Shown here one piece after another: positions 1,095 to 60,404 of a stretch of DNA of 64,000 nucleotides (the first letter of the stretch is position 1; every line of letters begins with the position of its first letter). This stretch comes from an uncultured Muribaculaceae bacterium (GTDB lineage: Bacteria > Bacillota_I > Bacilli_A > RF39 > UBA660). Below the pieces are notes generated by a model. The model did not search any database, was not told where the DNA came from, and saw nothing but the letters and a program-made list of their open reading frames with translations. The translations under genes were made by a program, and so were the position numbers. The stretch covers positions 3,488 to 67,487 of the forward strand of contig CAYZRY010000002.1 in assembly GCA_964481005.1 (NCBI GenBank), given 5' to 3'.

Positions 1095-3902
1095 CTATAA
1101 GACTTTCTTCAAGAATTGACCGGTATACGATTTTGAACATTTAATTATTTCTTCAGGTGTACCACTGCAGATTATCTCTCCGCCTTTGTCTCCACCTTCA
1201 GGACCTATATCAATAATGTGATCTGCTGTCTTAATCATATCTAAGTTATGTTCAATGACCACTACTGTATCCTTATTATCTACTATTTTATTTATTATTG
1301 CAAGCAGGCTTTTAATATCGTGAGTGTGCAAACCAGTCGTTGGTTCATCAAGAATGAATAAGGTTTTACCAGTAGCTACTTTTTGCAATTCTTTGACTAG
1401 TTTAACACGGCTAGCTTCTCCACCAGATAAGGTAGGTGCACTTTGTCCAAGTTTGATATAACCAAGTCCTATTTCATTTAAGACTTTAAGTTTCTTTTTG
1501 ATTTTAGGAACATTTTCGAAAAACTCGTAAGCCTCGCTAACACGCATATCTAGCACATCAGCAATGTTTTTGTCTTTATATTTAATTCTGAGTGTTTCAC
1601 TGTTGTATCTAGTTCCATGACAAACTTCACAAGGAACGTAGACATCGGGTAAAAAGTGCATTTCAATCTTTTTAACACCGTCTCCGCGACAAGCTTCACA
1701 GCGACCACCCTTTACATTAAATGAGAAACGATCTTTTCCAAAGCCGTACATTTTAGCTTCTTTAGTATTGGTAAATAGGGTTCTAATTTCATCAAAGACA
1801 CCAGTGTATGTTGCTGGATTACTCCTTGGTGTTCTACCAATTGGTGACTGATCAATTTCGACAACTTTATCTATATGTTCAAGTCCCTTAATAGCTTTAT
1901 GCTTACCAACTGTTACTTTCGATTTATAGACCTTGTGCTGCGCAGCTTTAGCAAGAATGTCAATAATTAGACTTGATTTTCCCGAACCAGAAACTCCAGT
2001 TACACAAGTAAATTTACCAAGTGGAATGTCGACATCAATATTTTTTAAGTTGTTTTCACTAGCGCCTTGAATAGTAATTTTCTTACCTGTTCCCTCTCTT
2101 CGTACACTGGGAACATCTATCTTTTCTTTACCACTTAAATATCTTCCAGTTAAACTTTTTTCATTGGCCATGACTTCTTTTGGTGTGCCAGCGGCAACTA
2201 CTTTTCCACCCATGTCACCAGCAAGTGGACCTATATCAACCAAATAATCACTAGCTAGCATCGTATCACTATCATGTTCAACGACAATTAAAGTGTTACC
2301 AAGGTCTCTCATTTCAATCAAAGATTTAATTAACTTATCATTATCTCGCTGATGAAGACCAATACTTGGTTCATCTAGTACATAAAGTACTCCCGTAAGG
2401 CGTGATCCAATCTGCGTTGCTAATCTGATTCTTTGTGCTTCTCCACCAGATAAACTTCCAGCCATTCTAGCTAGTGTTAAATAATCGAGTCCAACGTTTA
2501 ATAGAAACTGTAGACGATTATTAATCTCGGCTATTAACACCCGAGAAATCTCTGTTTTTTCTGCAGATAGTTTTAAGCTCTTTAAAAAGTTATACAATTC
2601 TCCAATACTGAGACTAGTCACTTCATAAATATTTTTATTATTAATTTTAACTGAGAGTACTTCTCTTGAAAGACGAGCACCATTACAACTAGGACAAGTC
2701 TGTTCAATCATGTATCCTTCGATCCATTCACGTACCCAAGCACTAGTAGTTGAAAGATAACGTCGCTCTAAATTGTTAACAATTCCCTCGTACGGTTCTT
2801 TCTTGTTGTATACGTTTCCACCCTTAGAAACATAATTAAAGTGAATATTCTCATCACTACCATAAAAGATAATATCTTTTTCTTTTTGACTTAGTTTTTT
2901 AAATGGTTTATCAGTATCTATACCAAAATGTTTACAAACACATTCAAGCATTTGATTGTAGATATTTTCACTATCATCACCAAGAGTTCTAATAGCATAT
3001 TTATCAATCGATAACTCTTCGTCTGGTACTAGCAGATCAGGAGATACTCGTCTTTTAATTCCTAATCCATTACATTCTGGGCAGGCTCCATATGGCGAAT
3101 TAAAGCTAAACATACGTGGTTCAAGTTCAGGTAGTGAGAACGAACAGTGCGGACAAGCGAACTTCTCCGACATAATTATTTCTCCTTCGCCCTTTTTATC
3201 AATTAATACTTTCCCTCTAGCAAGTTTTGCTCCAGTTTCAAGTGCTTCAAAAAGTCTACTTCTAATACCTTCTTTTATAACTAGACGGTCGATAACTACA
3301 TCTATTTTATGTTTAATATTTTTTTCTAAACTAATTTCTTCGCTTAGATCTCTATCTTCTCCATCAACTCTGACCCTTACAAAACCATCACTTTTAAGTT
3401 TTTGTAAGAGATCTTTGTGCTCTCCTTTTTCACCATCGACAATCGGAGCCATGATAACTACTTTTGTACCTTCATCAAAAGACATAACTTTATTAGTCAT
3501 CTCTTCGATCGATTGACTACTTATTTCAACATGATGATCAGGACAGTAAACTGTTCCAATTCTAGCATATAGCAATCTCAAATAATCATATATTTCTGTG
3601 ACTGTTCCAACTGTTGAACGTGGATTGTTACTAGTTGTTTTTTGATCGATACTGATAGCGGGTGATAATCCTTCGATGGAATCGACATCAGGTTTTTCCG
3701 TCCCACCCAAAAACTGTCTAGCATAAGCGCTAAGACTTTCTACATATCTTCGTTGTCCTTCGGCATATATCGTATCAAAAGCTAAACTACTTTTCCCAGA
3801 ACCAGATACACCAGTCATGACAATCAGTGAATTTTTAGGAAGCTCGATATCAATATCTTTAAGATTATTCTCTCTAGCTCCCTTAATAATTATTTTATCC
3901 AT
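1095..3902 (-). CDS. uvrA: excinuclease ABC subunit A
   Basis: 935 aa with two ABC ATPase modules (GVSGSGKSSLAFDT.., GVSGSGKSSL..), zinc-finger Cys pairs, LSGGEAQR signatures. Confidence 0.96.
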   Translation of the reverse strand: MDKIIIKGARENNLKDIDIELPKNSLIVMTGVSGSGKSSLAFDTIYAEGQRRYVESLSAYARQFLGGTEKPDVDSIEGLSPAISIDQKTTSNNPRSTVGTVTEIYDYLRLLYARIGTVYCPDHHVEISSQSIEEMTNKVMSFDEGTKVVIMAPIVDGEKGEHKDLLQKLKSDGFVRVRVDGEDRDLSEEISLEKNIKHKIDVVIDRLVIKEGIRSRLFEALETGAKLARGKVLIDKKGEGEIIMSEKFACPHCSFSLPELEPRMFSFNSPYGACPECNGLGIKRRVSPDLLVPDEELSIDKYAIRTLGDDSENIYNQMLECVCKHFGIDTDKPFKKLSQKEKDIIFYGSDENIHFNYVSKGGNVYNKKEPYEGIVNNLERRYLSTTSAWVREWIEGYMIEQTCPSCNGARLSREVLSVKINNKNIYEVTSLSIGELYNFLKSLKLSAEKTEISRVLIAEINNRLQFLLNVGLDYLTLARMAGSLSGGEAQRIRLATQIGSRLTGVLYVLDEPSIGLHQRDNDKLIKSLIEMRDLGNTLIVVEHDSDTMLASDYLVDIGPLAGDMGGKVVAAGTPKEVMANEKSLTGRYLSGKEKIDVPSVRREGTGKKITIQGASENNLKNIDVDIPLGKFTCVTGVSGSGKSSLIIDILAKAAQHKVYKSKVTVGKHKAIKGLEHIDKVVEIDQSPIGRTPRSNPATYTGVFDEIRTLFTNTKEAKMYGFGKDRFSFNVKGGRCEACRGDGVKKIEMHFLPDVYVPCEVCHGTRYNSETLRIKYKDKNIADVLDMRVSEAYEFFENVPKIKKKLKVLNEIGLGYIKLGQSAPTLSGGEASRVKLVKELQKVATGKTLFILDEPTTGLHTHDIKSLLAIINKIVDNKDTVVVIEHNLDMIKTADHIIDIGPEGGDKGGEIICSGTPEEIIKCSKSYTGQFLKKVL

Positions 3903-4389
3903 ATTGCCTCATTTTAATTTTTTCTTTAATTGTTTGATCCAAATATAATGAATCTCCTAAGAACAATTCAAGTTCTTCAGGAAGCAAATAATACTGTTCA
4001 ACAAATCTTCTTTTTCTAAAGAAAGCTGTATCTTTCATATATTCGATTAGTTCTTCGTGACTCATTTTAGATTTTAGGATTATTTCTCTAGCTGCGTACA
4101 TATCATAGTATCCATAGTATTCATCTTCGTATGTAACATAATCACTAGTATTTGATTCAATTCTGCAGATATCGATATCATCTTTAGTAACAAGACCAGT
4201 ATCTGGCAGAAAGTATCTTAACGTATCTTCAGGATTAGCACAAAAATGATAGCCATTACCCCTATTGCCGAAAGATATAACACCTTCGACACTGTATGTC
4301 TTATTTAGTACAAATTGCTTACCATATCTATTTATTAGTCCCTTATCGAAACATTTAAATCCTCTTATCATACGCACCTCAAACGCCAC
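3895..4389 (-). CDS. hypothetical protein, 164 aa, inserted between uvrB and uvrA
   Basis: Long ORF. Start 2 nt after stop of upstream radical-SAM gene; stop overlaps uvrA ATG by 8 nt (translational coupling). No motif I recognise. Confidence 0.6.
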   Translation of the reverse strand: MAFEVRMIRGFKCFDKGLINRYGKQFVLNKTYSVEGVISFGNRGNGYHFCANPEDTLRYFLPDTGLVTKDDIDICRIESNTSDYVTYEDEYYGYYDMYAAREIILKSKMSHEELIEYMKDTAFFRKRRFVEQYYLLPEELELFLGDSLYLDQTIKEKIKMRQYG

Positions 4390-4391
4390 TA

Positions 4392-5186
4392 TTATAATAC
4401 AAAACGATCTTTAAAGCGACATTTTTTACATAAATCTAAATATGCTTTATTATTTTTAAATGATTGATTAGTTTTGATAAATTCTTCAGATTCTAAGATT
4501 TCAGCAAGTGACTTGTCAAAAACGTTACCAAAACTAGCATCACCATTACCATCTAAACAGCAAGGAACAACTGTCCCATCAGCTAAAATACCAATTTGAT
4601 TGATTGTCCCTAAACAGTATGAATCAGTTTCTTCTTCATCTTCTAAAGTTGGCCATCTAAATTCTTCATCTAAACTTAAATAAATGTTCTTTGCCAATTT
4701 ACAATTTTCTGGCATCTCATCAAAATGATATCTATTTTTAAGAAAATTCATTACCTCTTCGTCATAAACACCATTATTACTAATCCAAATTCGGTAATTA
4801 ATATACATATTATCACTTAGTCTATCGCAAGTTTCGGCAAGAGCATTTAAGTCTTTAATACACTCACTATGAAGAGAAACATTTATCTGATGAACTATTT
4901 CGTTTAATATATTTTCTTTTTTAGTTAGCAGTGAAGAATTGGTCGTAATTACTACTTTGAGATTATTTTTTTGACAAATATCTAAAATATCATTTAATTG
5001 ACTATGTAAAAGTGGTTCACCTTTGACGTGGAGGTAAATATAATCACTGTAATTTTTAACTTCTTTAGCAAGCTTTTTAAAATTATCGATAGACATTTCA
5101 CCACGATCATTCCAAGGTTTACAAAAGCAGCAGTTCAAATTACATTTACTTGTTATTTCGACATATATCTTTTTAAATCTAGCCAT
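4392..5186 (-). CDS. radical SAM enzyme with C-terminal Cys-rich (SPASM/twitch-like) region
   Basis: N-terminal CNLNCCFC = CX3CX2C radical SAM cluster motif at residues ~15-22, GEPLL motif, C-terminal PCC..C..C cluster. ATG at 5186 (MARFKK) chosen over GTG at 5195; ATG overlaps uvrB stop by 8 nt. Confidence 0.7.
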
Positions 5187-7137
5187 TTTTTTCACTCTTC
5201 ATCTCAAAGATGATATCTCTTAGTTCCATCGCTCTTTCAAAGTCTAGTTCATCAGCTGCTTTCATCATTGCCTGTTCAAGTTCTTCGATAGTAACAGTAG
5301 CATAATTATCTTCGCTCTTTTTCTTCTTGCTAACTTTTGTCTCATCGACATTAGAGATCAAGTCTCTGACTTCTTTGATGATTGTCTTAGGTACAATGCC
5401 ATTTTCTTCATTATATTTTTCTTGAATGTTTCGTCTTCGCGCTGTCTCTTCGATAGCATTTTTCATCGAATCTGTTATCTTATCAGCATACATTATTGTT
5501 TTACCTTCGGCATTACGAGCACATCGTCCAATTGTCTGTATTAAACTGCGGGTACTACGAAGGAAACCTTCTTTGTCAGCATCGAGAATTGCAATTAGGC
5601 TAACTTCCGGTATATCTAATCCTTCACGAAGTAAGTTAATTCCAACTAAGCAATCGTACTTTCCAAGGCGAAGATCTCGAATGATACGCAATCTCTCTAA
5701 CGTTTTAACTTCAGCATGTATATAGGCAACTGAAATGTCGATATTTTTTAAGTAATCTGTTAACTCCTCGGCCATTCTAATCGTTAAGGTAGTAATTAAA
5801 GTTCTTTCTCCTCTAGCGATGCGTTCTTTTATCTCACCTATTAAATCATCTATTTGTCCATGACTTGGTCTAATTTCAATTAGTGGATCAAGTAGTCCAG
5901 TCGGTCTGATAATTTGTTCAACGACCCTTTTATCAACCTTTTCAAGTTCATAATCACCAGGCGTTGCTGAAACATATATTGCCTGATTAATTTTCTTTTC
6001 AAACTCATCGAAGGTTAAAGGTCTATTATCAAGAGCACTAGGCAATCTAAAGCCATAGTCAACAAGTGTCTGTTTACGCGATCTATCACCATTGTACATT
6101 GCTCTGACTTGCGGAACAGTTACATGCGATTCATCGATAACCAGTAAAAAGTCATCCGGAAAGAAGTCCATCAATGTCTCTGGTGTTTCACCGGCTTTTC
6201 TACCCGCTAAATGTCTCGAATAGTTTTCTATACCAGAGCAAAAACCAGTTTCACTCATCATCTCTAAATCGTATTTGACTCTTTGCTCAAGTCTTTGATA
6301 TTCAACTAACTTATTAGCTTCGGCTAATTCTTCTAATCTTTCGGCAAGTTCAAGTTTAATATTCTCAATTGCTTTTTCAAGTTTTTCACTACCAACGACA
6401 AAGTGACTAGCTGGAAAAATAGAAACACTTTTTTTATTTAATTTAATTGTTCCCGTCAAGACATCAAACTCACTGATGCGCTCTATTTCATCGCCAAAGA
6501 ATTCAACCCTTATTCCACTAGCTCTTTCATATGTAGGAATTATCTCAAGGACATCTCCCCTTACCCTAAAAGTACCACGTTTAAAATCGTGGTCATTTCT
6601 TTCAAAAAGCATATCGACAAGTTTTAATAAAACTTTATCTCTATCTATTTCATCACCGACATTTAGAGTCAGCATATTTTTTTCGTATTCTTCTTTTTCA
6701 CCAATACCATAAATACAAGAGACACTAGCTACGACTATTACATCGCGTCTTGAAATCAAGCTACTGGTCGCAGCATGTCTAAGTTCGTCTATTTCATCAT
6801 TAATCGAAGAATCTTTTTCAATATAGGTATCAGTCGATGGAACATAAGCTTCCGGTTGATAATAATCGTAGTACGAAACAAAGTATTCTACTCGGTTATC
6901 GGGAAATAATTCTTTTAATTCTGAATATAATTGACCCGCTAAAGTTTTGTTATGAGCCATAATGAGAGTTGGTTTTTGAACTTTTTCGATAACGTTTGCT
7001 ATTGTGAAAGTTTTACCTGTTCCAGTTGCACCCAAAAGGACCTGGCTTTCTTTGCCAAGTTCTATTCCTTCGACTAATTTATCTATTGCCTGTGGCTGAT
7101 CACCAGCCGCTTTAAAACTCGATGCAATCTTAAACAT
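5179..7137 (-). CDS. uvrB: excinuclease ABC subunit B
   Basis: 652 aa; helicase motifs [13 protein letters not shown]-terminal UVR domain ([23 protein letters not shown]). Confidence 0.96.
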
Positions 7138-23628: not shown

Positions 23629-25221
23629 CTATAATGTTGGGTAAACACCCGGTCCGATTGGGATACCTATCAAGTACCACCCTAGAATTATACATATCCA
23701 TGTTATCACCATGACGATGAAATATGGATATACATAAGCCAGAGCTTTTCTGATGGAAACTGGGTCCTTACCAGTATTATATATGTTTAAGTACGCTAAG
23801 TAAATAACAAAAAATCCCATAAATGGTGTTATTCCCTTAGTGATGGAATCAGCTGCTCTAAATATAAATTGAGCAAACTGAGGAGAAATATTAGATTGCA
23901 TCATCATCGGTACAACCACTGGTGAAAAGATAATCCATTTGTTTAAAGTAGATGGATAGAATAATCCAGTGAAGGCTACAACGACGATTGTCAGCATAAT
24001 CAAACTAATGTTTTTGAAGGCAAGAAATTGAATAATTTCTGCTCCATAACAAGCTAATAATAAACCGATGTTTGTCTGTTTAAAAATAGCTAAGGCTTGG
24101 ACAAAGAAGAAGACAATTAAAGCCACGTAACCAATATTTTTTAAATATAGAGCTGCTTTTTCAAATAAATCTTTGTCGTTTTTGATCGTTTTAGCTCCGA
24201 TTCCATAAGCAACTCCACATACCATCAGTAGAATAGTTGTCATGTAGGTAAAACCATCTTTGAAATATGATTGTGCACCAAACAATTGATTTGTGTAAGC
24301 TATTCTATTTGTATCAAGTAAGATTCCTGAACCAGGTAAACCTGGAGTAATCATATAAATAAAGATGGCAATAATTGTGATTAGGGCAATAAATGCATAT
24401 TTTACTCCGCGTTTTTCAAGTACTTCTCTCTCTATTTTTTCTTTATCATCAAGCTCACCAACCAATGTATGTTCGCTAGTTTCTTCAAGAATTTCATCAT
24501 CTAAACGATATCTTCCAATCTTTTTTAGAATCATCGATTCAATTGCCATTGTTCCAACGATTGATAAAATAATTGTACTACCCATCATAATAAATAAATT
24601 TGATAATAGTGCTACATGGGCTTCAGAATCAATTAATCTAGCTGCCATTGTTGTAATTGGTACCATACTTACATCCAGTGATCCAACAAATAACGATGTT
24701 CCATAACCAAAGGCTACTCCGCAGAAAGCAGCAGTAATACCAAGTAATGGACTACGCTTGTTAGCTAGGAAAACTAATGCTCCGATTGGAATTAAAACTG
24801 CATAACCGATATCATTTACAATATTTGAACTAATAGCGATAAATATTAATGAAAAAGTAATAAATTTATTGCTCATTTTAAAAGTAATTCTTCGAATTAC
24901 AGCATCAATTAAACCAGATGCGTGCGTTATGCTAACACCAATTAAACCAATAATAAGCGTTAAAAATACTGAGAAGCTACCAAAATTACTAGCAGCATTA
25001 CTAAATATATATTTAAATCCATCATAGTTAAACATATTGCGTACTTCGACAGTAATTGTTCTAAGTTCGTTGGTTCTCGAATCGATTACTCTATATGTTG
25101 ATTGGAGATCAAATCTCGATAAAACAAAACTTAGAAATATCGTGAAAACGGCTAATAAGATTAAACTAGTGACTGGATGCAGATTAAACTTTTTTAGTCT
25201 GCGTCTTTTTCGCTCTTTCAT
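23629..25221 (-). CDS. AbgT-family transporter
   Basis: 530 aa polytopic; C-terminal segment ..FAQFIFRAADS.. and ..WYLIGIPIGPGVYP matches the AbgT/MtrF family C-terminus as I remember it. Confidence 0.75.
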   Translation of the reverse strand: MKERKRRRLKKFNLHPVTSLILLAVFTIFLSFVLSRFDLQSTYRVIDSRTNELRTITVEVRNMFNYDGFKYIFSNAASNFGSFSVFLTLIIGLIGVSITHASGLIDAVIRRITFKMSNKFITFSLIFIAISSNIVNDIGYAVLIPIGALVFLANKRSPLLGITAAFCGVAFGYGTSLFVGSLDVSMVPITTMAARLIDSEAHVALLSNLFIMMGSTIILSIVGTMAIESMILKKIGRYRLDDEILEETSEHTLVGELDDKEKIEREVLEKRGVKYAFIALITIIAIFIYMITPGLPGSGILLDTNRIAYTNQLFGAQSYFKDGFTYMTTILLMVCGVAYGIGAKTIKNDKDLFEKAALYLKNIGYVALIVFFFVQALAIFKQTNIGLLLACYGAEIIQFLAFKNISLIMLTIVVVAFTGLFYPSTLNKWIIFSPVVVPMMMQSNISPQFAQFIFRAADSITKGITPFMGFFVIYLAYLNIYNTGKDPVSIRKALAYVYPYFIVMVITWICIILGWYLIGIPIGPGVYPTL

Positions 25222-25229
25222 AATTCTCC

Positions 25230-25430
25230 TTAATATTTGATAACTTTTTTAACTTTTTTATTAAATTCTATTCTTGGAATAGTTACTATTCTACTGCAGT
25301 TATTACATTTTATTTTAATGTCTGCTCCTACTCTAGTTACTTCCCATTCGTTATGTCCACATGGATGAGCTTTTTTCATAATAACTTGTGAACCTAATTG
25401 AATATCTTTATTTTCCATATTGTTACTCAT
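25230..25430 (-). CDS. DUF951 family protein (YyzM-like)
   Basis: 66 aa with HPCG...WE(V)TR(V)GADIKIKC..C pattern, like B. subtilis YyzM; sits next to spo0J as in Bacillus. Confidence 0.75.
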   Translation of the reverse strand: MSNNMENKDIQLGSQVIMKKAHPCGHNEWEVTRVGADIKIKCNNCSRIVTIPRIEFNKKVKKVIKY

Positions 25431-26301
25431 CGATATTCATAATTTCTAAAATTCTATTTAGATCATTGACATTACTAAAGTATACTTCTAGGGTATTATT
25501 TCTGATTTTTACTCTAGTACCAAGTTTTTCAGAAAGACTATCTTCAAGATGACTAAACTGACTATTACTTGATTTTTTTGTTGTTTTAACTGGCTTTTCA
25601 CCACGAATTATATTTTCTGTCTGTCTGACATTTAAATTTTCATTAAGTATTTTTTCAACAAGTGCATCTACTTCCTCAGCAGTTTCAAGTTTACTTAAAA
25701 TTCTTGCATGACTGGCAGATATTTTATCTTTATTAATTAAATTTTTAACATGATCTGGCAAGTTTAATAGTCCTACCATGTTCGTAATATAGCTACGACT
25801 CTTACCAAGACGTTTAGCTAACTCTTCTTGCGTTATACGAAGCTTTTCAAGTAATTGCTTGTAAGCATTTGCTTCTTCAATAGCATTTAAATTTTCTCTT
25901 TGAAGATTCTCAAGTAGAGCTATTTCCATCATCTCATCATCAGTAAAATCTCTAACTATCGACGGGATAGTCTTTTTTCCTGCTATTTCACTAGCTTTAA
26001 CACGTCGTTCACCAGCTATTATTTCATAACCTTTAATTGAACTCTTTTTAACGATAATTGGCTGAATAACACCATGTTCTTTGATTGATTCAGCTAATTC
26101 ATCAAGCTTTTCAGCATCGAATATTTTTCTCGGTTGGTAAGGGTTGCTTCTAAGTTCATTAATGTTTAGTTCAACTATTTCATCTTTTGAAGTTGAATTT
26201 ACAATACTTTCTTCAATTGATGAAAAGTCCATCTTTTCATTACTGAACAACTCTTCTAAACCTTTACCCATTACTCTTCTTTTATTATCCATTTCTCTCA
26301 A
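25423..26301 (-). CDS. parB: chromosome partitioning protein ParB/Spo0J
   Basis: ParB N-domain (GERRVKAS), HTH segment LGKSRSYITNMVGLL carrying Arg at the parS-specificity position, C-terminal dimerisation domain. True start may be an internal Met (MDNKRR or MGKGLEELF). Confidence 0.9.
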   Translation of the reverse strand: MREMDNKRRVMGKGLEELFSNEKMDFSSIEESIVNSTSKDEIVELNINELRSNPYQPRKIFDAEKLDELAESIKEHGVIQPIIVKKSSIKGYEIIAGERRVKASEIAGKKTIPSIVRDFTDDEMMEIALLENLQRENLNAIEEANAYKQLLEKLRITQEELAKRLGKSRSYITNMVGLLNLPDHVKNLINKDKISASHARILSKLETAEEVDALVEKILNENLNVRQTENIIRGEKPVKTTKKSSNSQFSHLEDSLSEKLGTRVKIRNNTLEVYFSNVNDLNRILEIMNIDE

Positions 26302-27070
26302 TCACTTCCTTAGCTAAATTTAAATAAGCCTCAGTTCCTCTACATTTAGGATCGTACGCTACAATTGGTTTACCGTGCGATGGTGCCTCAGTTAATCTAA
26401 CTGATCTTGGGATGATTGTATTGTAAACTCTCTCTTTAAAATATTTTCTTATATCTTCGACTACATCAAATCCAATATTTGTTCTAGCATCGAGCATTGT
26501 CAGTAAAACTCCTTCAATATCTAGATTTGGATTTAAATTTTTCTTCGCCATCATTATCGAGTTGAGCAGTTGCATTATTCCCTCTAGTGCATAAAATTCA
26601 CACTGCACTGGAATTATTACTGAATCTGTTGCTGTAAGTGCATTAGTTGTGATCAGTCCAAGCGATGGTGGACAATCGATAATTATATAATCATATCTAT
26701 TTCTAACTGTATCTATTTTATTTTTAAATTGGGAACCCCTTTGGAAACCAGGCTCTTTTTGGCTTCTCTCCATAAGTTCCATGTCCAAACCTGCTAAATT
26801 TACTGTCGCTGGCAGGACATCTAATCTTTTGTATCTACTACTTAAAATAGCATCATCAATCTGGCACTTTTCCGTAATAACGTCATAGACGCTATATTGA
26901 AGTTCCCCCTTGTTAATACCCATTCCTGTCGTAGTATTTCCTTGTGGATCTAGATCGACAAGTAATACTTTTTTACCTAGTACTGCAATCGATGCAGAAA
27001 GATTTATACTAGTTGTTGTTTTTCCTACGCCACCCTTTTGGTTGACCAAAGATATTATCTTCCCCATCAA
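26285..27070 (-). CDS. parA: chromosome partitioning ATPase ParA/Soj
   Basis: Deviant Walker A KGGVGKTT, 261 aa. Confidence 0.92.
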   Translation of the reverse strand: MMGKIISLVNQKGGVGKTTTSINLSASIAVLGKKVLLVDLDPQGNTTTGMGINKGELQYSVYDVITEKCQIDDAILSSRYKRLDVLPATVNLAGLDMELMERSQKEPGFQRGSQFKNKIDTVRNRYDYIIIDCPPSLGLITTNALTATDSVIIPVQCEFYALEGIMQLLNSIMMAKKNLNPNLDIEGVLLTMLDARTNIGFDVVEDIRKYFKERVYNTIIPRSVRLTEAPSHGKPIVAYDPKCRGTEAYLNLAKEVIERNG

Positions 27071-27159
27071 ATCACCTTCCTAAATATCAGTATATATATG
27101 ATATCAAATATTAGATGATTTTTAAATAAAAAAAACAAATTACTTTGTTTTTCTTATCA

Positions 27160-28578
27160 TTATTTTGCTATTCTAACAACTATTTCCATAACTCCGTTGT
27201 TTACGGTGTTAACTAGTTCAACTTTGAATCCTTTACTCTCTAGTTCTCTTGTAATATTACCGATAGCAATATTAGCAAATTTGATTTCTTCACTAGCTGT
27301 AAAATCTGCTCCTGAAGCTGGTGTTGCAGCTTCTTGGACTGGAGCTTGAACTGCTTCGACTTGTGGTTCTACTTGAACAATTTGTGGAGCTGGCTCTGGT
27401 GTTACAAATGTTAAAGGTTCAATTGGGGCAACCGGAGCAATACTAGCATTTTCTTGTTCAATTATACCGCTTAGTCCATTTTGATTAACTGGTTGGATAT
27501 CGACAAGTTGTGGTGTCTGCTGAATTACAGGCATACCTGCAAGTAGTCCCTTACCGATAATTTCTTGACCATTAACTGGCTCTGGAGATGGAGTGCCAAG
27601 ATCTGGAATGAATCTGTTTTGCATTGCAACTTCTTCCTCACTCGGAGCTTCAGCTTTTAATAGTGAACTCATGTCAGCAACCTGTTTAAGACCACCTTGA
27701 TTAATGTCTGCTGCTTCTGATCTAATCTTATCGATATCAACAATTGTTTGATCAACTGCAACTGGCGAAACATCTAATGTCTCTACTTGCTGACTCTCTG
27801 CTTGAACAACTGGTGTATCAACTGGCTGAATAAATGTTGGTGCCGGGTTGATAAATGTTTCAAGTGGAGCTGGCGTCGGACTTACTACTTCGGCTGGCGC
27901 TTGAACTTGACTGTTTATTTGTGCTTCAAACGACGGTGTATTAACTTCAGCTATATTTGTATTTATTAAATTACTCTCTTCATTCATTCTCTTTATTCTT
28001 TCATCAACTTCTCTTACTGGAAGTCTTTTTTCTACTATCTCTTCAAGTAGAGTTAGTTGTTTACTACGATCAGATAAGTTAATTAAACTACGAGCATGAC
28101 GCTCAGATATCTGTTCTTTTAAAAGGGCTTGTTGAATTTCTTCAGGAAGACTTAATAGTCTTAATTTATTGGCAACCGAAGACTGAGATTTACCCATTGT
28201 TTTAGCAAGTTGTTCCTGAGTCAAATCATCTATATCTAAGATTTTTTGATAGGTTCTTGCTTCCTCAATCGGAGACAAATCTCTTCTTTGTAAATTTTCT
28301 ATTAAAGCTACTTTAGAACTTTCTTTATCATCGAAATTTTTAACTATCGCAGGAATAGTTGTCTTACCAACTAACGAAGATGCTTTATATCTTCTTTCTC
28401 CGGCAATAATCTCATACTTCTCACCAATTTTTCTAACTATGATTGGTTGAATTACTCCATGTTCTTTAATAGATACAGCTAACTCTTTTAATGCTTGATC
28501 ATCAAACACTTCACGTGGCTGAAACCTATTTGGAATAACATCATCCAAATGTAGTTGAATAATTTCTTCATTCTGCAT
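27160..28578 (-). CDS. noc: Noc-like ParB paralog with ~230-aa low-complexity insertion
   Basis: N-terminal 190 aa collinear with B. subtilis Noc (IPNRFQPR, HGVIQPIIVR, IAGERR, VALIENLQRRDLSPIEEA, MGKSQSSVANKLRLL, ISERHARSL). Gln/Lys in recognition helix where ParB has Arg/Met. Then a P/V/Q/A/E-rich linker, then a ParB-type C-terminal domain (..VMEIVVRIAK). Confidence 0.8.
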   Translation of the reverse strand: MQNEEIIQLHLDDVIPNRFQPREVFDDQALKELAVSIKEHGVIQPIIVRKIGEKYEIIAGERRYKASSLVGKTTIPAIVKNFDDKESSKVALIENLQRRDLSPIEEARTYQKILDIDDLTQEQLAKTMGKSQSSVANKLRLLSLPEEIQQALLKEQISERHARSLINLSDRSKQLTLLEEIVEKRLPVREVDERIKRMNEESNLINTNIAEVNTPSFEAQINSQVQAPAEVVSPTPAPLETFINPAPTFIQPVDTPVVQAESQQVETLDVSPVAVDQTIVDIDKIRSEAADINQGGLKQVADMSSLLKAEAPSEEEVAMQNRFIPDLGTPSPEPVNGQEIIGKGLLAGMPVIQQTPQLVDIQPVNQNGLSGIIEQENASIAPVAPIEPLTFVTPEPAPQIVQVEPQVEAVQAPVQEAATPASGADFTASEEIKFANIAIGNITRELESKGFKVELVNTVNNGVMEIVVRIAK

Positions 28579-33293: not shown

Positions 33294-34216
33294 GCTTTTT
33301 TCTCCTTCTTTATAATCATATTTTGAATTATTGTGAATAAATTAGAAGTAACCCAGTATATTCCAAGGGCAGATGACATGAAGACAGCCATTACTGTGAT
33401 CATACCAGTCATCATATTACCCATTGATTTACCCTGTTTTGCATCTATTGATGCCATGTTTTTACTAAATGATAGCCATGTTGTGTAACCAACTAAAGCA
33501 AGAATAATTATGTATTGCCAGTTGCCATTCATAAAACCTACAAGTGGAGTTGTTCCAAGTTGAAAGCTTAAAAACTTTTCTTCAAATATTGCTGGAACTC
33601 GGCTTATTGCTTCGAAGAATCCAATGAAAATTGGTAATTGAATAAATGCTAGAAGACAACTTGATAATGGATTGACTTCATATTTTTGATAAAGAGCTGA
33701 CATTTCCTGACTTTTCTTCATCATTGAGTCTTGATCATTCTTATCTTTATACTTATCTTCGATTCTAGCCATTTCAGGTTTAAGCTTATTCATGTTTTCC
33801 GATTGTTTTGCTGTTTTACTAGTTACTGGGAACATCAATAATCTTATTAGAATACTTGTTATTACTAGGGCAAAACCATAACTTTTTACAATTGTTCCTA
33901 TTTTGATAATCATAAATGCAAGTGGTTTGACAAAAAGTGTTGCCCAAAGTCCTTCGTATCCTCCAGATGTTACTTTAAAATCTTTACATGCTGGTAGTTT
34001 TTCTAAATTTACTTGTTTAGGATATTTTTTATATATCTCTATTGTTTCTTTATCTGTTGGCTTACAAAGTATATTTTCTGTTAAACTCTGACCAGTTGTA
34101 GGGTTTTTAACACCTTTGTTAGTTTCTTTATCTTTTAAATTTACAGTACATGCTGTAAGAAAAAAGATCGATATAAGGAGAATAGTCAATATTTTTTTAT
34201 TTTTCATTTTTAACAC
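33290..34216 (-). CDS. yidC: membrane protein insertase YidC (lipoprotein type, SpoIIIJ-like)
   Basis: Lipobox LTAC after signal peptide; 308 aa 60-kDa inner-membrane insertase family. Confidence 0.85.
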   Translation of the reverse strand: MLKMKNKKILTILLISIFFLTACTVNLKDKETNKGVKNPTTGQSLTENILCKPTDKETIEIYKKYPKQVNLEKLPACKDFKVTSGGYEGLWATLFVKPLAFMIIKIGTIVKSYGFALVITSILIRLLMFPVTSKTAKQSENMNKLKPEMARIEDKYKDKNDQDSMMKKSQEMSALYQKYEVNPLSSCLLAFIQLPIFIGFFEAISRVPAIFEEKFLSFQLGTTPLVGFMNGNWQYIIILALVGYTTWLSFSKNMASIDAKQGKSMGNMMTGMITVMAVFMSSALGIYWVTSNLFTIIQNMIIKKEKKA

Positions 34217-34544
34217 CTCTATTTAGCTTATCAACTGCATCCATGAATAGTTTAGCGGTTGTTTCATATGAATCTATATCAAAGCCATTCCTAACTATTA
34301 TAATATAATCGTATTCATTTTGATAGTTATTTTTATTTTGATCGATTATCATTCTTAGTTGTCTTTTTATTTTGTTTCTCTTTACGGCGCTACCTATTTT
34401 TTTACCAATCGATATACCAAAACGATATGTTTTATATTCATTCTTATATATATATATTGAAAAAGAGCTATTAGAATAGTATCTTCCATTTTTAATAGCT
34501 ACGGTAAAATCTTCGTTATCTTTGACTATGTTAATCTTCTTCAT
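34197..34544 (-). CDS. rnpA: ribonuclease P protein component
   Basis: 115 aa basic protein directly downstream of rpmH; RnpA motif region (..ISIGKKIGSAVKRNKIKRQLR..). Confidence 0.85.
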   Translation of the reverse strand: MKKINIVKDNEDFTVAIKNGRYYSNSSFSIYIYKNEYKTYRFGISIGKKIGSAVKRNKIKRQLRMIIDQNKNNYQNEYDYIIIVRNGFDIDSYETTAKLFMDAVDKLNRGVKNEK

Positions 34545-34597
34545 AGGTCACCTTCCAATAACATTATATAATAAAAAACCCACTATTAAAGTGGTTT

Positions 34598-34714
34598 TTA
34601 TACTAATTTTTTTCTTCCCCTAGCTCTTCTTCTTTTTAAAACAGATTTAGAAGTAGCAAAAAAACCGTGTACTTTTGCTTTTTTTCTCTTGTTAGGTTGA
34701 TAAGTTCTTTTCAT
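34598..34714 (-). CDS. rpmH: 50S ribosomal protein L34
   Basis: Not in ORF track (short). Hand translation of minus strand: [38 protein letters not shown]; classic rpmH-rnpA-yidC order. Confidence 0.85.
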
Positions 34715-34779
34715 AATACACCTCCAAACTTAAAATCTACACAATTATATATTACTTATTAGTCATTTGTCAATTATTT

Positions 34780-34925
34780 TTACTTATAAACATATTAACA
34801 ACTATGTTGATAATTATTTTAGACATGTTATTAAAAATTTGTGGAAATTGTTAATAACTTCGTTTATAATAACAAACTAACGATTTTAATTGTGGATATC
34901 TTTGTGGATATCTTGTGAACACTCT
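34780..34925. promoter_or_regulatory. oriC upstream DnaA-box cluster and dnaA promoter region
   Basis: DnaA-box-like 9-mers: TGTTGATAA (34805), TGTGGAAAT (34840), TGTGGATAT (34891 and 34904, 13 bp apart), TGTGAACAC (34915). AT-rich; strand switch of all genes here. Confidence 0.7.
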
Positions 34926-35009
34926 TTTTGAGGGGTTTTCAACTTTATTTTTTTTAACATTTGATATAAACTTAATTTAAGAAATGTTTATAGGTTTGGG
35001 GGAGGAATT

Positions 35010-36362
35010 ATGGATTTAGATAACGTATGGCATCAAACTCTTGAAATAATTAAAAATGAACTTAATCTCCTTGCTTTTCAAACTTGGTTTGAGAACACTA
35101 AAATAGATAGTATTAAAGATAATACTGTCACTATTATAGTCCCTTATTCTATTCACAAACAACATATGGAGACTAATTATAAAGATATTATAGTTAATGC
35201 TCTAAAACTTATTAACAATGAAACTTATGAACTTAAATTTGTATTAGAGACTGAAGTTGAAGAAATCGAAATACTAGATGTTAGTCAACCAGTCAAAGAA
35301 AAGAAAAATGATAGTTTTATAACTAATCTTAATCCAAATTATACTTTTGATACATTTGTCGTAGGTAACAGTAATCGATTTGCACATGCTGCTTCATTAG
35401 CGGTAGCTGAAAATCCTGGTAAAATATACAATCCACTGTTCATTTATGGTAATAGTGGACTAGGTAAAACCCATTTGATGCATGCGATTGGTAATTACAC
35501 TTCGCAGTACAGTGATAAAAAGGTTCTATATATAACTAGTGAACAATTTATCAACGATTATGTTTCAATTAATCGACGTGATGATAAAACAAACAATTTT
35601 GAATACGTTGATCTATTTAAAAGTAAATACCGTGATGTCGACGTTCTGATTATCGATGATATTCAGTATTTAGGCGGAGCGACCGAGACACAGAAAGAAT
35701 TCTTTCAAACGTTTAATACTTTATATGAAAATAAAAAACAAATTATTATATCTTCGGATACTTCGCCAAACGATTTAAAAAGACTTGAAGATCGTTTAAT
35801 AACAAGATTTTCATGGGGATTGACAGTAGATATATATCCTCCTGATTACGAGCTTAGATACGAAATATTAAAGAAAAAGATAGCAGGGGAGTCAATTGGA
35901 ATTAAAATACCAAATGACGTTATCGAGTTTATTGCCTCATCTATCAGTGGAAATATAAGAGCTCTCGAAGGATCAATTAATAGATTATTAGCTTATTCTA
36001 CAATAATGAACCTAGAAATAGACATAAATGTCGCCAAAGAAGCTCTAAAAGACTTTATAAATAAAGGCACTAGTGAAAAGAACGATATAACTAAAATTCA
36101 AAAGGTTGTCGCTAATTACTTTGGAATTGCTGTCGAAGATCTAAAATCTAAGAAAAGAAACAAAGAAATTATTTTACCTAGACAAATAGCTATGTATCTA
36201 GCAAGACAACACACTGATGAGTCTTTCCCTAAAATAGGTAGTGAATTTGGTGGTAAAGACCATTCGACAGTCATTCATTCTTGTGATAAAATAGAACAAG
36301 AGTTAAAAAAGAATAAAGAGATTAAAATGATAGTTGAAAAACTTCAGAAAGAGATAACATAA
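35010..36362 (+). CDS. dnaA: chromosomal replication initiator protein DnaA
   Basis: AAA+ GNSGLGKTHL Walker A, C-terminal DNA-binding domain, 450 aa. Confidence 0.97.
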   Translation: MDLDNVWHQTLEIIKNELNLLAFQTWFENTKIDSIKDNTVTIIVPYSIHKQHMETNYKDIIVNALKLINNETYELKFVLETEVEEIEILDVSQPVKEKKNDSFITNLNPNYTFDTFVVGNSNRFAHAASLAVAENPGKIYNPLFIYGNSGLGKTHLMHAIGNYTSQYSDKKVLYITSEQFINDYVSINRRDDKTNNFEYVDLFKSKYRDVDVLIIDDIQYLGGATETQKEFFQTFNTLYENKKQIIISSDTSPNDLKRLEDRLITRFSWGLTVDIYPPDYELRYEILKKKIAGESIGIKIPNDVIEFIASSISGNIRALEGSINRLLAYSTIMNLEIDINVAKEALKDFINKGTSEKNDITKIQKVVANYFGIAVEDLKSKKRNKEIILPRQIAMYLARQHTDESFPKIGSEFGGKDHSTVIHSCDKIEQELKKNKEIKMIVEKLQKEIT

Positions 36363-37671: not shown

Positions 37672-38124
37672 ATGAAAAATTATGAAATTAATGAAGATAC
37701 TATGGCTATTGTTCCAGTATCATATTATGAAAGTTTAATTAAAGAGAAGGATAGGGAATTCATTATTAACAACAATTCTTATAAAATAATGGAATATAGT
37801 TGTGAATATTATGGAAGTACTATCGGTGGTCGTTTAAAAGCAGCTAAAAAGATATTTGATTGTCCTTATAAGACACCGCTTTTAATCGAAGAAAGTGAAA
37901 ATATTATCTTTTTTCCGACTAAATCTGCCAAAGATGAAGATTGTTTATGGATTAATAATAATTATGTTGAAAAGATAATTAAAAAAGATGGAACAAGTGT
38001 CTTATTATTCACAAATGGTGATTCAATTAATATTAATACATCTAAGCTATCACTAGAAAATCAAGTTGCCAGATCAGCAAGATATGAAAACATATTAAGA
38101 AAAAGAAAATTATCTACAAAATAA
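37672..38124 (+). CDS. comK: ComK-family competence transcription factor homolog
   Basis: 150 aa. Blocks matching B. subtilis ComK as I remember it: AIVP, SCEYYGSTIGGRLKAAK (vs SCRFFGSSYAGRKAG), IIFFPTKS (vs IFLFPTLS), CLWIN (vs CGWIS), SLENQVARSARYENIL (vs SFENQVYRTAWLRTKF). Confidence 0.65.
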   Translation: MKNYEINEDTMAIVPVSYYESLIKEKDREFIINNNSYKIMEYSCEYYGSTIGGRLKAAKKIFDCPYKTPLLIEESENIIFFPTKSAKDEDCLWINNNYVEKIIKKDGTSVLLFTNGDSININTSKLSLENQVARSARYENILRKRKLSTK

Positions 38125-46249: not shown

Positions 46250-46549
46250 ATGAATATGCAAGCTTTAATGAAACAAGCGCAAAATTTACAAAAAGATATG
46301 ATGAAAGCAAAAGAAGAAATCGATCAAACAACTTTTGAGGGAAAAAATTCGTTTGTTACTGTCGTTGTAAATGGAAAAAAAGAACTGGTCGAAGTAAAAA
46401 TTGATCATGAATCAGATTTAGAAAAAGATGAAATAGAGATGCTTGAAGATATGATTTTATTAGCAACAAATGAGGCTATGAAAAAAGTAGATGAAGAAAC
46501 AGAAAAGAAAATGGGTAAATTTTCAAGTATGATGCCAGGATTGTTTTAA
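46250..46549 (+). CDS. ybaB: nucleoid-associated protein YbaB/EbfC
   Basis: 99 aa MNMQALMKQAQNLQKDMMKAKEE.., conserved dnaX-ybaB-recR order. Confidence 0.9.
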   Translation: MNMQALMKQAQNLQKDMMKAKEEIDQTTFEGKNSFVTVVVNGKKELVEVKIDHESDLEKDEIEMLEDMILLATNEAMKKVDEETEKKMGKFSSMMPGLF

Positions 46550-47142
46550 TGTATCCCGAAAGCATAAAAAATCTAATTGAAAGTTTCAAACTTCTACCAG
46601 GAGTTGGTGCTAAATCAGCGGAAAGAATGGCTTTTCACGTTTTGAGTATGGAAACAGAAAAGACAGATTATTTAGCAGATAGCATCAAAGAAGCAAAGGA
46701 AAAAATAAAATACTGTACCGTTTGTAACAACTACAGTGAAACAGATATTTGTAGTATTTGCAGCGATAGTGGTAGAAACAAAGATTATTTATGCGTTGTT
46801 GAAGATAGAAAAAGTATCTATCTTTTTGAACAGTTAGGAACTTACAAGGGGTATTATCATGTTATTAAAGACTTGATTTCCCCGCTCAACGGAATAAATC
46901 CTGAAGATATAGGGATTGATGAATTAGTTAAAAGAATAGAAAAAGAAAAATTTAAAGAAGTAATAATAGCTGTTAAACCTAGTATTGAAGGCGAGACAAC
47001 AACTTTGTATATTAAAAAAATACTAGAAGGTTTAAATGTTAAAGTAAGTAAAATTGCCAGTGGTGTACCAATGGGTGCTGACATAGAATACATAGACCAG
47101 TTAACTCTTCAACGAGCACTTAGCGATAGAAAAGAGGTCTAA
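46549..47142 (+). CDS. recR: recombination protein RecR
   Basis: HhH N-terminus, C4 zinc finger CTVCNNYSETDICSIC, Toprim; start overlaps ybaB stop. Confidence 0.95.
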   Translation: MYPESIKNLIESFKLLPGVGAKSAERMAFHVLSMETEKTDYLADSIKEAKEKIKYCTVCNNYSETDICSICSDSGRNKDYLCVVEDRKSIYLFEQLGTYKGYYHVIKDLISPLNGINPEDIGIDELVKRIEKEKFKEVIIAVKPSIEGETTTLYIKKILEGLNVKVSKIASGVPMGADIEYIDQLTLQRALSDRKEV

Positions 47143-47143
47143 C

Positions 47144-47911
47144 ATGGGGGATATAATTAGAGATATTTATTCAACCTACATGAGTGATCAAAATATAAAA
47201 CATGCGTATTTAATAGAAATGAAGACTGATGATCTAGCACTTATTTTTCGTTTAGCAAATTTAGTTTGTGAATCAAAAGTCAGTGAAGAAGCTATCCTAA
47301 AAGGTTCAAGTCAAGATATTAAAATAATATTTCCTGACGGAAATGACATAAAAAAAACCCAGATACTCGATCTTCAGGAAGAATTCATGAATACATCCAT
47401 TCTTGATAAAAAAAGAGTATATATAATATCTGATGCCAGCAAACTTAATAAATCATCTGCTAATACATTACTTAAGTTTTTGGAAGAACCACCTGTTGGT
47501 GTAATTGCTTTTCTTCTAACGAGCAATAGGCACAATATAATTAATACTATTTCATCAAGATGTATCACAATCGGACTTAATGTATTACCAAAGGAAGAAG
47601 AAATAGAGCAGATTTATATTGATATGTTAGAAAAGCTTGAAACAAAGAAAACAAAATTTTTTATCAATTTAAATGAAGAAGAGAAAAAAATTATTCACGA
47701 TAAATTAGAACAAAAGAAATTTTTAGAAAAGGCAATTGTTCTTACTCATCGTAAAACAAAGAAAGAAAGAGATACAAAACAGCTTAATGAATATACGAGA
47801 AACTTAACGATATTTATTGAAATGATAGAACTTCTCGATAAGAACATTAATCCTAAAATGGTTTTAAATAAGATGTTATATTTAATGTATGGAGGTAGTA
47901 ATTATGCATGA
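47144..47911 (+). CDS. holB: DNA polymerase III subunit delta-prime
   Basis: 255 aa AAA+-like clamp-loader subunit, LLKFLEEPP motif; position before ricT as in Bacillus. Confidence 0.7.
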   Translation: MGDIIRDIYSTYMSDQNIKHAYLIEMKTDDLALIFRLANLVCESKVSEEAILKGSSQDIKIIFPDGNDIKKTQILDLQEEFMNTSILDKKRVYIISDASKLNKSSANTLLKFLEEPPVGVIAFLLTSNRHNIINTISSRCITIGLNVLPKEEEIEQIYIDMLEKLETKKTKFFINLNEEEKKIIHDKLEQKKFLEKAIVLTHRKTKKERDTKQLNEYTRNLTIFIEMIELLDKNINPKMVLNKMLYLMYGGSNYA

Positions 47912-54121: not shown

Positions 54122-54787
54122 ATGGATGAAAGTATAAAGAAACAATTTGAAACAAAAAACTATGAAATACTGACTAATAAGTTAAAGATAGACTTAAATA
54201 ATAACAGTGACTCTTTAAATAAAACCATCGAAAACATCGTTGATTTGCATCTTACGAAGCTTGAAAAAAGCCTTGCAAACATTTTGAAAAACAGTGATAC
54301 AGCGAATGACAGTAATAAAATAAATGAGTATTTTAACGAAGAAAAAGACATATTAAAAACAATTATGCTTGAGAAAGTTCAACAACGAAGAGATGTTATC
54401 TTAAAATTCTTTGAAAAAGATGAGACAGCAGAATTCTTAGAAAAGTATTTTGATACCATTGATCAAAGTCGCAAAGAATTTGATGAACAAATAAGATCAA
54501 CATTAAATGAAGAGATACTTACCAGCTTCACTAATAAAATAAGAACTTCATGTACTTTTAAAGATGAAGAGGGAAAAAATGTTGTTACTTCGATAATTGT
54601 CAGTGGTTTGCAACAGCCACTAATCGAAGGAGCAAGTGATAATAATGAATTACGTTCAAATAACTTAAAGAACTTCGCTAAAGATTCATACAATTATTAT
54701 TTAGAGTTAAACCGTGTTACAACAGATACTTATGAAGATGATGAGCTAGTTAAGGAAAAGAAAAAAAATATTGATAATATTGCGTAA
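54122..54787 (+). CDS. hypothetical protein, Asn/Lys/Glu-rich, predicted coiled-coil
   Basis: 221 aa uninterrupted ORF in an otherwise gene-dense conserved block; no recognisable motif. Confidence 0.5.
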   Translation: MDESIKKQFETKNYEILTNKLKIDLNNNSDSLNKTIENIVDLHLTKLEKSLANILKNSDTANDSNKINEYFNEEKDILKTIMLEKVQQRRDVILKFFEKDETAEFLEKYFDTIDQSRKEFDEQIRSTLNEEILTSFTNKIRTSCTFKDEEGKNVVTSIIVSGLQQPLIEGASDNNELRSNNLKNFAKDSYNYYLELNRVTTDTYEDDELVKEKKKNIDNIA

Positions 54788-59064: not shown

Positions 59065-59119
59065 AATAATAAAAGCAAGTGATACTTGCTTTTAAAAATC
59101 AAAAATATAGGAGGGTAAT

Positions 59120-60310
59120 ATGGAAAAGTTAAAAATAAAATTAGTTGAAGAACAATTTAGTGATAAAAATGACAAATTCGATCAAGGTGATGCTCTAGCT
59201 TTATCAGGAAGAATAGCTGGAGTTTGTTATGACAAAGAAGGATATTCGCACATTAAAAATGAGGATTATAAAAAAACTGAGAGGCGAATTGATATGACCT
59301 TAGATAGTGGTCATCACAGTGTTTATGATCATGTTAATGTCAGATTAGAAATTCAAAATATCCCTAAAATGTTAGCAATGGTTATAAATAACGAAAAACA
59401 GTATGCCACTAGTGAAAAATCATCTAGATATACCGAAATAAACAATAAATATAACGATTCAGTTAGTGCTAAAGAAGAAGAGTTATACAACAAATGGAAA
59501 CAAATTATTGCAGTAAAAATTAAAGAAAATTATCCAGATTTCAGCGATATAAAAGTAAATAAACTAGCTCAAGAAAATGCTAGATATATGGTTTCTGTTT
59601 TTGTACCAACACAGATGGTATATACGACATCATTAAGACAAATTAACACATTGGCAATGATGATGGATGAATATATAGAAAACAATAATGGACATTATTT
59701 TGAAAGCAAGCTTTCTAAAGCAATGAATGCCCTTATTTTAGAACTAGAAGATAATAATTTGCTAGTTCCAGGGTTATTAACAAACGAAAAAAATCGTTCA
59801 TTATCACTATTTGCTGATCCAAGTATCGAAGATGAAGAGATATTTTCACATATTTATTCAGTTAACTATGATGCATCATTTGCACAATTGGCGCAGGCTC
59901 AAAGACATAGAACACTAGATTATCAAATGAATAGAACGGAGGATAAAACATATTTTATTCCACCAATTATTCAAGATGATCCACTTTTAATAAGTGAATG
60001 GGTCAATGATTTGGAGAGTGTCGCTCATTTGGTTCCACAGGCTGAAATGGTTAGAGTAACAGAATCAGGCACATATGATAACTTTATTTTAAAAGCAAAA
60101 GAAAGACTATGTACTTATGCTCAACTTGAAATTGCTATGCAAACAAAAGATACACTTCAAAAATATAGAGACGGGCTAGAAGCTAAAAAACATTATCTAG
60201 CTGACGATATAGCAAAATATGATCGTGGAGCTAGATGTAGTTTCCCTGATTATAAATGTACAAATGATTGTGGTTTTGCCGAAGGTAAAAAACTTATCAG
60301 AAAAATATAA
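59120..60310 (+). CDS. ThyX-like (Thy1 fold) protein, divergent, with C-terminal extension
   Basis: SGHHSVYDHVNV resembles ThyX HGHETPFEHIVF; NNEKQYATSEKSSRY aligns to the ThyX signature FRHRIASYNELSGRY but lacks the RHR there (an RHR appears later at QAQRHRT). About 170 extra residues ending in CSFPDYKCTNDCGF. Confidence 0.4.
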   Translation: MEKLKIKLVEEQFSDKNDKFDQGDALALSGRIAGVCYDKEGYSHIKNEDYKKTERRIDMTLDSGHHSVYDHVNVRLEIQNIPKMLAMVINNEKQYATSEKSSRYTEINNKYNDSVSAKEEELYNKWKQIIAVKIKENYPDFSDIKVNKLAQENARYMVSVFVPTQMVYTTSLRQINTLAMMMDEYIENNNGHYFESKLSKAMNALILELEDNNLLVPGLLTNEKNRSLSLFADPSIEDEEIFSHIYSVNYDASFAQLAQAQRHRTLDYQMNRTEDKTYFIPPIIQDDPLLISEWVNDLESVAHLVPQAEMVRVTESGTYDNFILKAKERLCTYAQLEIAMQTKDTLQKYRDGLEAKKHYLADDIAKYDRGARCSFPDYKCTNDCGFAEGKKLIRKI

Positions 60311-60404
60311 GTAATTAGTAAATACTAATTACTTTTTTGTGATTAAAATATGACTAATGAATAAAAATATAGTATAATGGATTTATCCAAGAAAGGAAGA
60401 AATT

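Follow-up and report, generated by a model that had tools for sequence, protein, structure and literature searches.

We propose that the gene at positions 59120..60310 (plus strand) of the window, the 64,000-nucleotide stretch of DNA that was analysed, encodes a functional single-chain flavin-dependent thymidylate synthase (ThyX) made of two Thy1 repeats and carrying a four-cysteine (Cys4) metal site, and we put the probability of this reading, with its predicted activity, at roughly 0.7. The enzyme would convert dUMP to dTMP at the expense of CH2-H4folate and a reductant. The ORF, recognized by reading the sequence, by a database match and by an AF2 model, starts with ATG and specifies 396 amino acids, and its product is 100% identical to the database protein P0001. 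A ribosome-binding site, GGAGGG, is found at 59110..59115 with the ATG 4 nt further on, and a probable intrinsic terminator follows at 60310..60338, with the stem AGTAATTAGT/ACTAATTACT, the loop AAAT and then TTTTT, all on the plus strand and read from the sequence. The 10-bp stem is perfect and AT-rich, and since it has only 2 G-C pairs the hairpin was missed by the automated terminator scan. The AF2 model of the protein built from 125 sequences had a pLDDT of 96.4 and a pTM of 0.93, while one based on 18 close homologues reached a poor pLDDT of 67.6. An earlier note on this DNA had quoted the motifs SGHHSVYDH, NEK, ATSEKSSRY, QAQRHRTLDY and CSFPDYKCTNDCGF from a protein of 396 aa; the length is correct and all five motifs are present.

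The N-terminal part of the protein is a complete Thy1 repeat (aa 1-211; 59120..59752, plus strand, as are all the features below), as judged from Pfam PF02511, hhalign and conservation. When the full-length protein was scanned, PF02511 matched aa 28-175 only (E=2e-17, 64 bits with a cutoff of 24.8). The N-half (aa 1-215) compared by hhalign with the profile of Thermotoga maritima ThyX, whose sequence (TM0449) is identical to PDB 1KQ4, gave 98.1% probability and E 1e-13 with aa 4-209 aligned to residues 1-201, and the AF2 secondary structure of aa 1-211 has its elements in the same order as canonical ThyX. These comparisons with ThyX establish the Thy1 fold that the earlier note had suspected; the ThyX-like region, which it took to be the N-terminal third, in fact spans the N-terminal 210 residues.

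Within this repeat, alignments to the M. tuberculosis and T. maritima enzymes place SGHHSVYDH at aa 63-71 (59306..59332), where H65 and H71 are equivalent to T. maritima H53 and H59, and S67 to M. tuberculosis S71, a FAD contact contributed by subunit B. The dUMP-binding loop ATSEKSSRY (aa 96-104; 59405..59431) was located in the same way and is 96-99% conserved; its E99, S101, R103 and Y104 correspond to T. maritima E86, S88, R90 and Y91, and the last three of these to M. tuberculosis S105, R107 and Y108. Together with K83, which stands in place of M. tuberculosis R87, and with R155 and R173, these residues make up the ThyX-type set of the N-repeat, which lacks both an RHR and the Arg of the last helix. 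At the RHR position there is instead the degenerate N91-E92-K93 (59390..59398), which varies across the family and lies opposite R95-H96-R97 when the family profile is aligned to M. tuberculosis ThyX and opposite R78-H79-R80 in the hhalign alignment to T. maritima ThyX. The placing of NEK at this position in the earlier note is therefore borne out by both alignments.

A linker (aa 212-244; 59753..59851), delimited by AF2 secondary structure, separates the first repeat from a second, N-terminally truncated Thy1 repeat at aa ~245-355 (59852..60184), for which the evidence comes from Pfam searches with the C-half, hhalign and AF2 secondary structure. In isolation, the C-half of the window protein matched Pfam Thy1 with an E of 0.011 (aa 248-346 with profile positions 61-182 of 191). 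When the isolated C-halves of 44 family members were searched with the whole Pfam library, 37 matched Thy1 (best E 1e-6), and no other Pfam family was matched by more than two of the 44. The hhalign comparison of the C-half with T. maritima ThyX was weak (probability 17%, E 0.0014) and had RHR, YFIPP and R..AQLEI in register with RHR, FYIP and R174..AQWEI; a search of PDB sequences with the C-half profile returned no ThyX chain. Since the C-half matches Thy1, what had been described as a displaced RHR is the RHR of the second repeat. This sole RHR of the protein, R262-H263-R264 (59903..59911; hhalign; 96-98% conserved), does lie well downstream of NEK as the earlier note said, though at a distance of 171 residues and not about 150. 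It is part of QAQRHRTLDY (aa 259-268), in which Q259, three residues before the RHR, is equivalent to T. maritima Q75. Further on, KERLCTYAQLEI (aa 327-338; 60098..60133; hhalign) contains R329, the counterpart of the uracil-binding Arg that is R174 in T. maritima and R199 in M. tuberculosis, and C331, each of them 99% conserved. The repeat is without the first ~60 profile positions and without the Ser/Arg/Tyr dUMP loop.

The same region could be read as belonging to a lone Thy1 domain that has a large insertion and is extended at its C-terminus, the later RHR being coincidental or relocated. In keeping with that reading, the profiles of the N- and C-halves showed no mutual similarity in hhalign (probability 0.4%), and the full-length protein gives just the one Pfam Thy1 stretch described above. 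It is highly improbable, however, as the C-halves taken alone match Thy1 over profile positions 61-182, and Q..RHR, FYIP and R....AQ.EI occur in the canonical order and with the canonical spacing. Furthermore, the topology of the C-half (strand-helix-RHR-strand-helix-strand-helix-helix in the AF2 model) repeats that of the N-half, and the N-half already accounts for the whole of T. maritima ThyX (1-201), including its last helices. We therefore favour two repeats, a duplication that is based on the separate Thy1 match of each half and that would be old, since the halves have no detectable likeness.

The arrangement of the catalytic residues is best understood by reference to M. tuberculosis ThyX, where three subunits build one active site, with subunit A giving R95-H96-R97 and R199, subunit B giving S71 and R190, which lie on the FAD, and subunit C giving R87, S105, R107 and the Y108 lid (PMC6514825). 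PBCV-1 ThyX agrees with these subunit roles (PMC3498832). In the window protein, all of the A-type residues (Q259, R262, H263, R264 and R329) are in the C-repeat and all of the B- and C-type residues (S67 and R173, and K83, E99, S101, R103 and Y104, with H65 and R155 in addition) are in the N-repeat. A complete set of dUMP/FAD-contact residues for one site is thus present, divided between the repeats and 81-99% conserved in an alignment of 125 homologues with 34-63% identity. In the C-repeat, the conservation is 98% for R262, 96% for H263, 98% for R264, 99% for R329 and 92% for Q259. In the N-repeat, it is 99% for K83, S101, R103, H65 and R155, 98% for E99, 96% for Y104, 91% for S67 and 81% for R173. 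At the reciprocal positions the residues vary or are unsuitable, being N/E/K at 91-93, hydrophobic at 182, F/L at 272 and Gly at 317.

The contiguous motif RHR-X7-8-S-X-R-Y is consequently nowhere to be found in the protein, the N-repeat having NEK followed by S101-S-R103-Y104 and the C-repeat having R262-H-R264 with no S-x-R-Y, and the score with the NCBIfam equivalog for thyX, TIGR02170, is 48.8 bits, below its cutoff of 87.9. The earlier note had allowed that a proper alignment might recover every ThyX active-site residue and so make this an ordinary ThyX. The full set is indeed recovered, but from two repeats and with no contiguous motif. The lack of that motif, and the fact that each repeat is without half of the catalytic residues, is what might be expected of a catalytically dead relic of ThyX retained for a structural or regulatory role. 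Such a relic is extremely improbable given that the residues which survive form exactly one complete, complementary set that is near-invariant at 34-63% identity, and that the family is widespread, extends to phage-like contigs and is linked to tmk (see below).

With the residues divided so that role A belongs to the C-repeat and roles B and C to the N-repeat, a dimer would be expected to resemble the ThyX tetramer but to have two sites where the tetramer has four. Each C-repeat would be limited to role A and each N-repeat to roles B and C, so that in a pseudo-tetramer formed by two chains the C-repeats would act as "A" and the N-repeats as "B" and "C" of both sites. Since the catalytic residues are partitioned between the repeats, a full set can come together at only two of the four pseudo-symmetric sites. 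These would be the complete FAD/dUMP sites of the assembly, and the other two would be dead or vestigial.

The canonical homotetrameric ThyX (FDTS) enzymes, such as TM0449 (PDB 1O26) and the M. tuberculosis protein (PDB 2AF6/3GWC), are 216-258 aa long, whereas the window chain of 396 aa amounts to 1.6 Thy1 units plus the Cys4 tail. Among the PDB matches there was no fused ThyX, and single-sequence phmmer against the PDB found nothing relevant. The Foldseek matches included the Thermus thermophilus Thy1 (PDB 6J61), which like the window protein is a ThyX with added C-terminal sequence and whose title refers to an "extra C-terminal domain". The Thy1 domain of 6J61 matches T. maritima ThyX along nearly its entire length (aa 2-217, E 2.3e-65); in the window protein, by contrast, the C-terminal part appears to supply essential catalytic residues.

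A closer parallel was provided by the viral models, for which the best Foldseek matches were a "thymidylate synthase" of 491 aa from Microcystis phage LMM01 (E 5.6e-12, TM 0.62) and a protein of 413 aa from Bacillus phage SP-15. In the LMM01 protein, ORF20 (BAF36111.1, "putative thymidylate synthase"), GHGS and ERSTRY are accompanied by just one RHR, at 363, and the motifs are split in the same way in nearly all of its 37 relatives, which are 460-590 aa long; some of these long-form proteins from metagenomes carry the JGI name "thymidylate synthase ThyX". Chlamydia ThyX proteins, which are ~530 aa long and have been shown to be enzymatically active, may belong to this long-form class as well. 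In the long form, as in the window family, the N-half carries GH.S and S-T-R-Y while the C-half has the one RHR, and hhalign of the two families gave 97.7% probability and E 2.5e-12, colinear over aa 5-334 and 8-450 with both motif sets aligned. In other respects they differ. Identity between the long form and the window protein is ~12-15%, with no BLAST-level similarity, and the long form exceeds the window protein by 60-190 aa and is without the conserved Cys4. It ends in R.RPGGHINYR where the window family has ER.C..AQ.EI, and this motif, along with GAR.SR and GQE.STR.Q.F, is missing from the window protein. The two-repeat ThyX class would thus be a broad one, with the window family best read as its compact branch that bears a Cys4. 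Our literature search found nothing on two-repeat, fused/tandem or half-site ThyX, on Cys or Fe-S ThyX, or on RF39 ThyX.

The window family is large. A database search at E<=1e-3 returned 3373 matching proteins, and the best 120 of these are all full-length (395-418 aa) and, one 100% copy aside, 54-63% identical to the window protein. Since 3373 proteins match and the conservation over the 125 homologues is 81-99%, the family motifs are not due to chance. When 1.84 billion representatives were searched exhaustively, 642 matched, with 311 below 1e-30, which represent ~311 clusters at 50% identity. The family is present in at least 546 species-level genomes. The best 80 genomes are nearly all MAGs, the rest being uncultured-isolate or CAG-type assemblies, and come mostly from gut samples; they are labelled as uncultured Bacilli, Tenericutes, Mycoplasmatota or Erysipelotrichaceae, and one of them is a complete 1.31-Mb chromosome. 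In addition, 17 viral contigs of IMG/VR (up to 268 kb) encode a member with 30-46% identity, flanked mostly by ORFs without a Pfam match. GenBank phages gave no match in tblastn with either the window protein or a viral homologue, and PHROGs held no family for the window protein.

The window itself is a replication-origin region of low GC content (~31%) with a change in the sign of the GC skew near 35 kb. The plus strand carries dnaA, dnaN, recF, gyrB and gyrA and the minus strand yidC, jag, mnmE, mnmG, rsmG, parA and parB; this gene order, together with the labels of the related MAGs, makes the bacterium look Bacilli-like. The two-repeat ThyX gene is flanked by rsmA-spoVG on one side and by DHH phosphoesterase-rplI-dnaB on the other. 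Neither thyA, DHFR, tmk nor a canonical thyX was detected in the window by Pfam scans of non-overlapped ORFs of at least 120 aa or by tblastn, for which the E. coli ThyA query was itself checked, and hence the statement in the earlier note that the window has no thyA holds; nor, then, does a tmk adjoin the gene here. The spoVG/DHH/rplI surroundings were absent from 80 related loci, and those loci had no conserved neighbour other than tmk. Of the 76 related loci with sufficient downstream sequence, 25 have tmk (PF02223, E 6e-17) directly downstream, starting 1-10 nt past the stop codon of the ThyX-like gene or overlapping it. This linkage lends indirect support to dTMP synthesis. A putative dCMP deaminase, named by eye from its sequence alone, is encoded nearby in 4 related loci.

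These data bear on the possibility that the protein is a neofunctionalised Thy1-fold enzyme that makes no dTMP but methylates or hydroxymethylates UMP, dCMP or a nucleic-acid base. A precedent is PolB (PDB 4P5A), a ThyX-like UMP/dUMP C5-methylase that is encoded in the polyoxin cluster and works beside a housekeeping thymidylate synthase (PMC5954106). PolB is a single repeat with a contiguous motif, in contrast to the window gene with its two repeats, housekeeping neighbours and, at related loci, tmk linkage, and the PolB-type setting of an antibiotic cluster with a second thymidylate synthase was not found in the sampled DNA. We consider a non-dTMP enzyme unlikely, since the residues of ThyX known to contact dUMP and FAD are all kept (81-99%), and the gene appears to be translationally coupled to that for thymidylate kinase in a third of the loci. 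The 1.16 Mb made up of the window and the related loci, ~1% of those genomes, contained no thyA, DHFR or canonical thyX. Housekeeping neighbours, genomes that are seemingly small, as judged from the complete MAG chromosome, and occurrence in so many species also speak against it. Taken together, a catalytic set that is intact, the tmk linkage, the housekeeping neighbours and the phage-like contigs favour dTMP synthesis over modification of tRNA or of another nucleotide. Thus, the earlier note was right in seeing a Thy1 fold with a non-canonical architecture, while its guess that the protein is something other than a thymidylate synthase is probably wrong, given the catalytic set and tmk.

The C-terminal tail (aa 356-396; 60185..60307), defined from family alignments and AF2, contains C373, C380 and C384 in a CX6CX3C arrangement and a near-invariant R394. 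It was modelled with a pLDDT of 97-98 despite having scant secondary structure, and no domain family matched it in the Pfam scans. The Cys-rich stretch CSFPDYKCTNDCGF (aa 373-386) is located there as the earlier note reported, but it is not the end of the protein, being followed by ten residues, AEGKKLIRKI. Five cysteines are near-invariant in the family, namely C36, C331, C373, C380 and C384. C36 was rejected as a fifth metal ligand because M. tuberculosis ThyX has the same Cys (AGRACYQS), and it is thus not specific to the family. The other four occur together in 254 of 271 sequences, and six sequences without C373, five of them viral, have gained a Cys at 332 so that the count stays at four. 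C331 is equivalent to T. maritima D176 and is two residues past the uracil-binding R329. No ThyX sequence that was examined, whether canonical (T. maritima-type) or long-form, had a Cys4 beside the catalytic Arg.

From this pattern it is probable that C331, C373, C380 and C384 form a metal site, which would pin the C-terminal tail beside the active site. The metal would most simply be a structural Zn, and an Fe-S cluster could also be accommodated. A more far-reaching proposal is that the Cys4 holds a [4Fe-4S] cluster near enough to the flavin for electron transfer, that ferredoxin or flavodoxin and not NAD(P)H reduces this ThyX, and that uncultured gut Bacilli of a large clade, along with some large phages, depend on the asymmetric two-site pseudo-tetramer as their thymidylate synthase; in this complete form we regard it as rather unlikely. 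Were the Cys4 to be redox-active, the view of how ThyX is reduced in anaerobes would change.

Humans have no ThyX, and the enzyme is a target for antibacterial drugs. Since the active site is built by three subunits, it is difficult in a homotetramer to tell apart what each of them contributes. A single-chain enzyme with the roles assigned by repeat, if our reading is true, would be a natural asymmetric system in which subunit roles and the sufficiency of half of the sites could be addressed. As the equivalog failed and the textbook motif is missing, surveys of thyA and thyX that rely on motifs could score genomes of this kind as having no thymidylate synthase. Automatic annotation already labels members of the family as "FAD-dependent thymidylate synthase".

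Two-repeat ThyX proteins of the window type were also found on 17 uncultivated viral contigs from IMG/VR (L082-L098), the largest of which is 268 kb, at 30-46% identity; examples are located at L090 4857-6344 and L084 4938-6143. The majority of the ORFs flanking these viral genes had no Pfam match, and no relative of the two-repeat protein was found in GenBank phage genomes at the BLAST level. In the ThyX family alignment, a subgroup consisting of L082-L086 and the database protein P0170 has Cys at both 331 and 332 ("RLCC") and is missing the first tail Cys, C373. The total of four Cys is preserved in this subgroup, with one putative ligand of the probable metal site having moved.

A separate class is formed by the long-form ThyX proteins of 460-590 aa, comprising ORF20 of Microcystis phage LMM01 (L099 15717-17192, minus strand) and its 37 relatives (P0404-P0440). 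Their motifs are divided between the halves as in the window ThyX, with S-T-R-Y in the N-terminal half and a single RHR in the C-terminal half, but they differ in having their own motifs, GAR.SR and R.RPGGHINYR, and in lacking the four Cys. A structural relative (413 aa) is also encoded by Bacillus phage SP-15, the DNA of which contains a hypermodified base.

In a third of the related genomes the thymidylate kinase gene tmk directly follows the ThyX gene, unlike in the window, where tmk was not found anywhere in the 64 kb. In Bacillus, tmk is located in the recR/holB neighbourhood; a holB-like gene lies directly 3' of recR in the window (46549-47911, plus strand). An AbgT-family transporter is encoded at 23629-25221 (minus strand). 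This is the family of p-aminobenzoyl-glutamate transporters, so the protein may have a bearing on the salvage of folate by a bacterium that depends on a folate-using ThyX.

Since both GC skew and AT skew switch sign at about 35 kb (~34200-35000), beside dnaA (35010-36362), the chromosomal replication origin is placed there. In this region a ComK-family gene (37672-38124, plus strand; PF06338, E 1e-37) is flanked by dnaN and recF. Elsewhere, parA is flanked by two ParB-type genes (25423-28578, minus strand), the longer encoding an unusually long protein of 472 aa, the C-terminal ~270 aa of which matched no Pfam family.

An insertion that separates uvrB from uvrA (3895-5195, minus strand) encodes a radical SAM/SPASM protein of 267 aa and a DUF7666 protein of 164 aa. 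Between mfd and metG, a 221-aa ORF (54122-54787, plus strand) without a Pfam match was found; this gene also occurs on the Logan contig L081 (901-1566).
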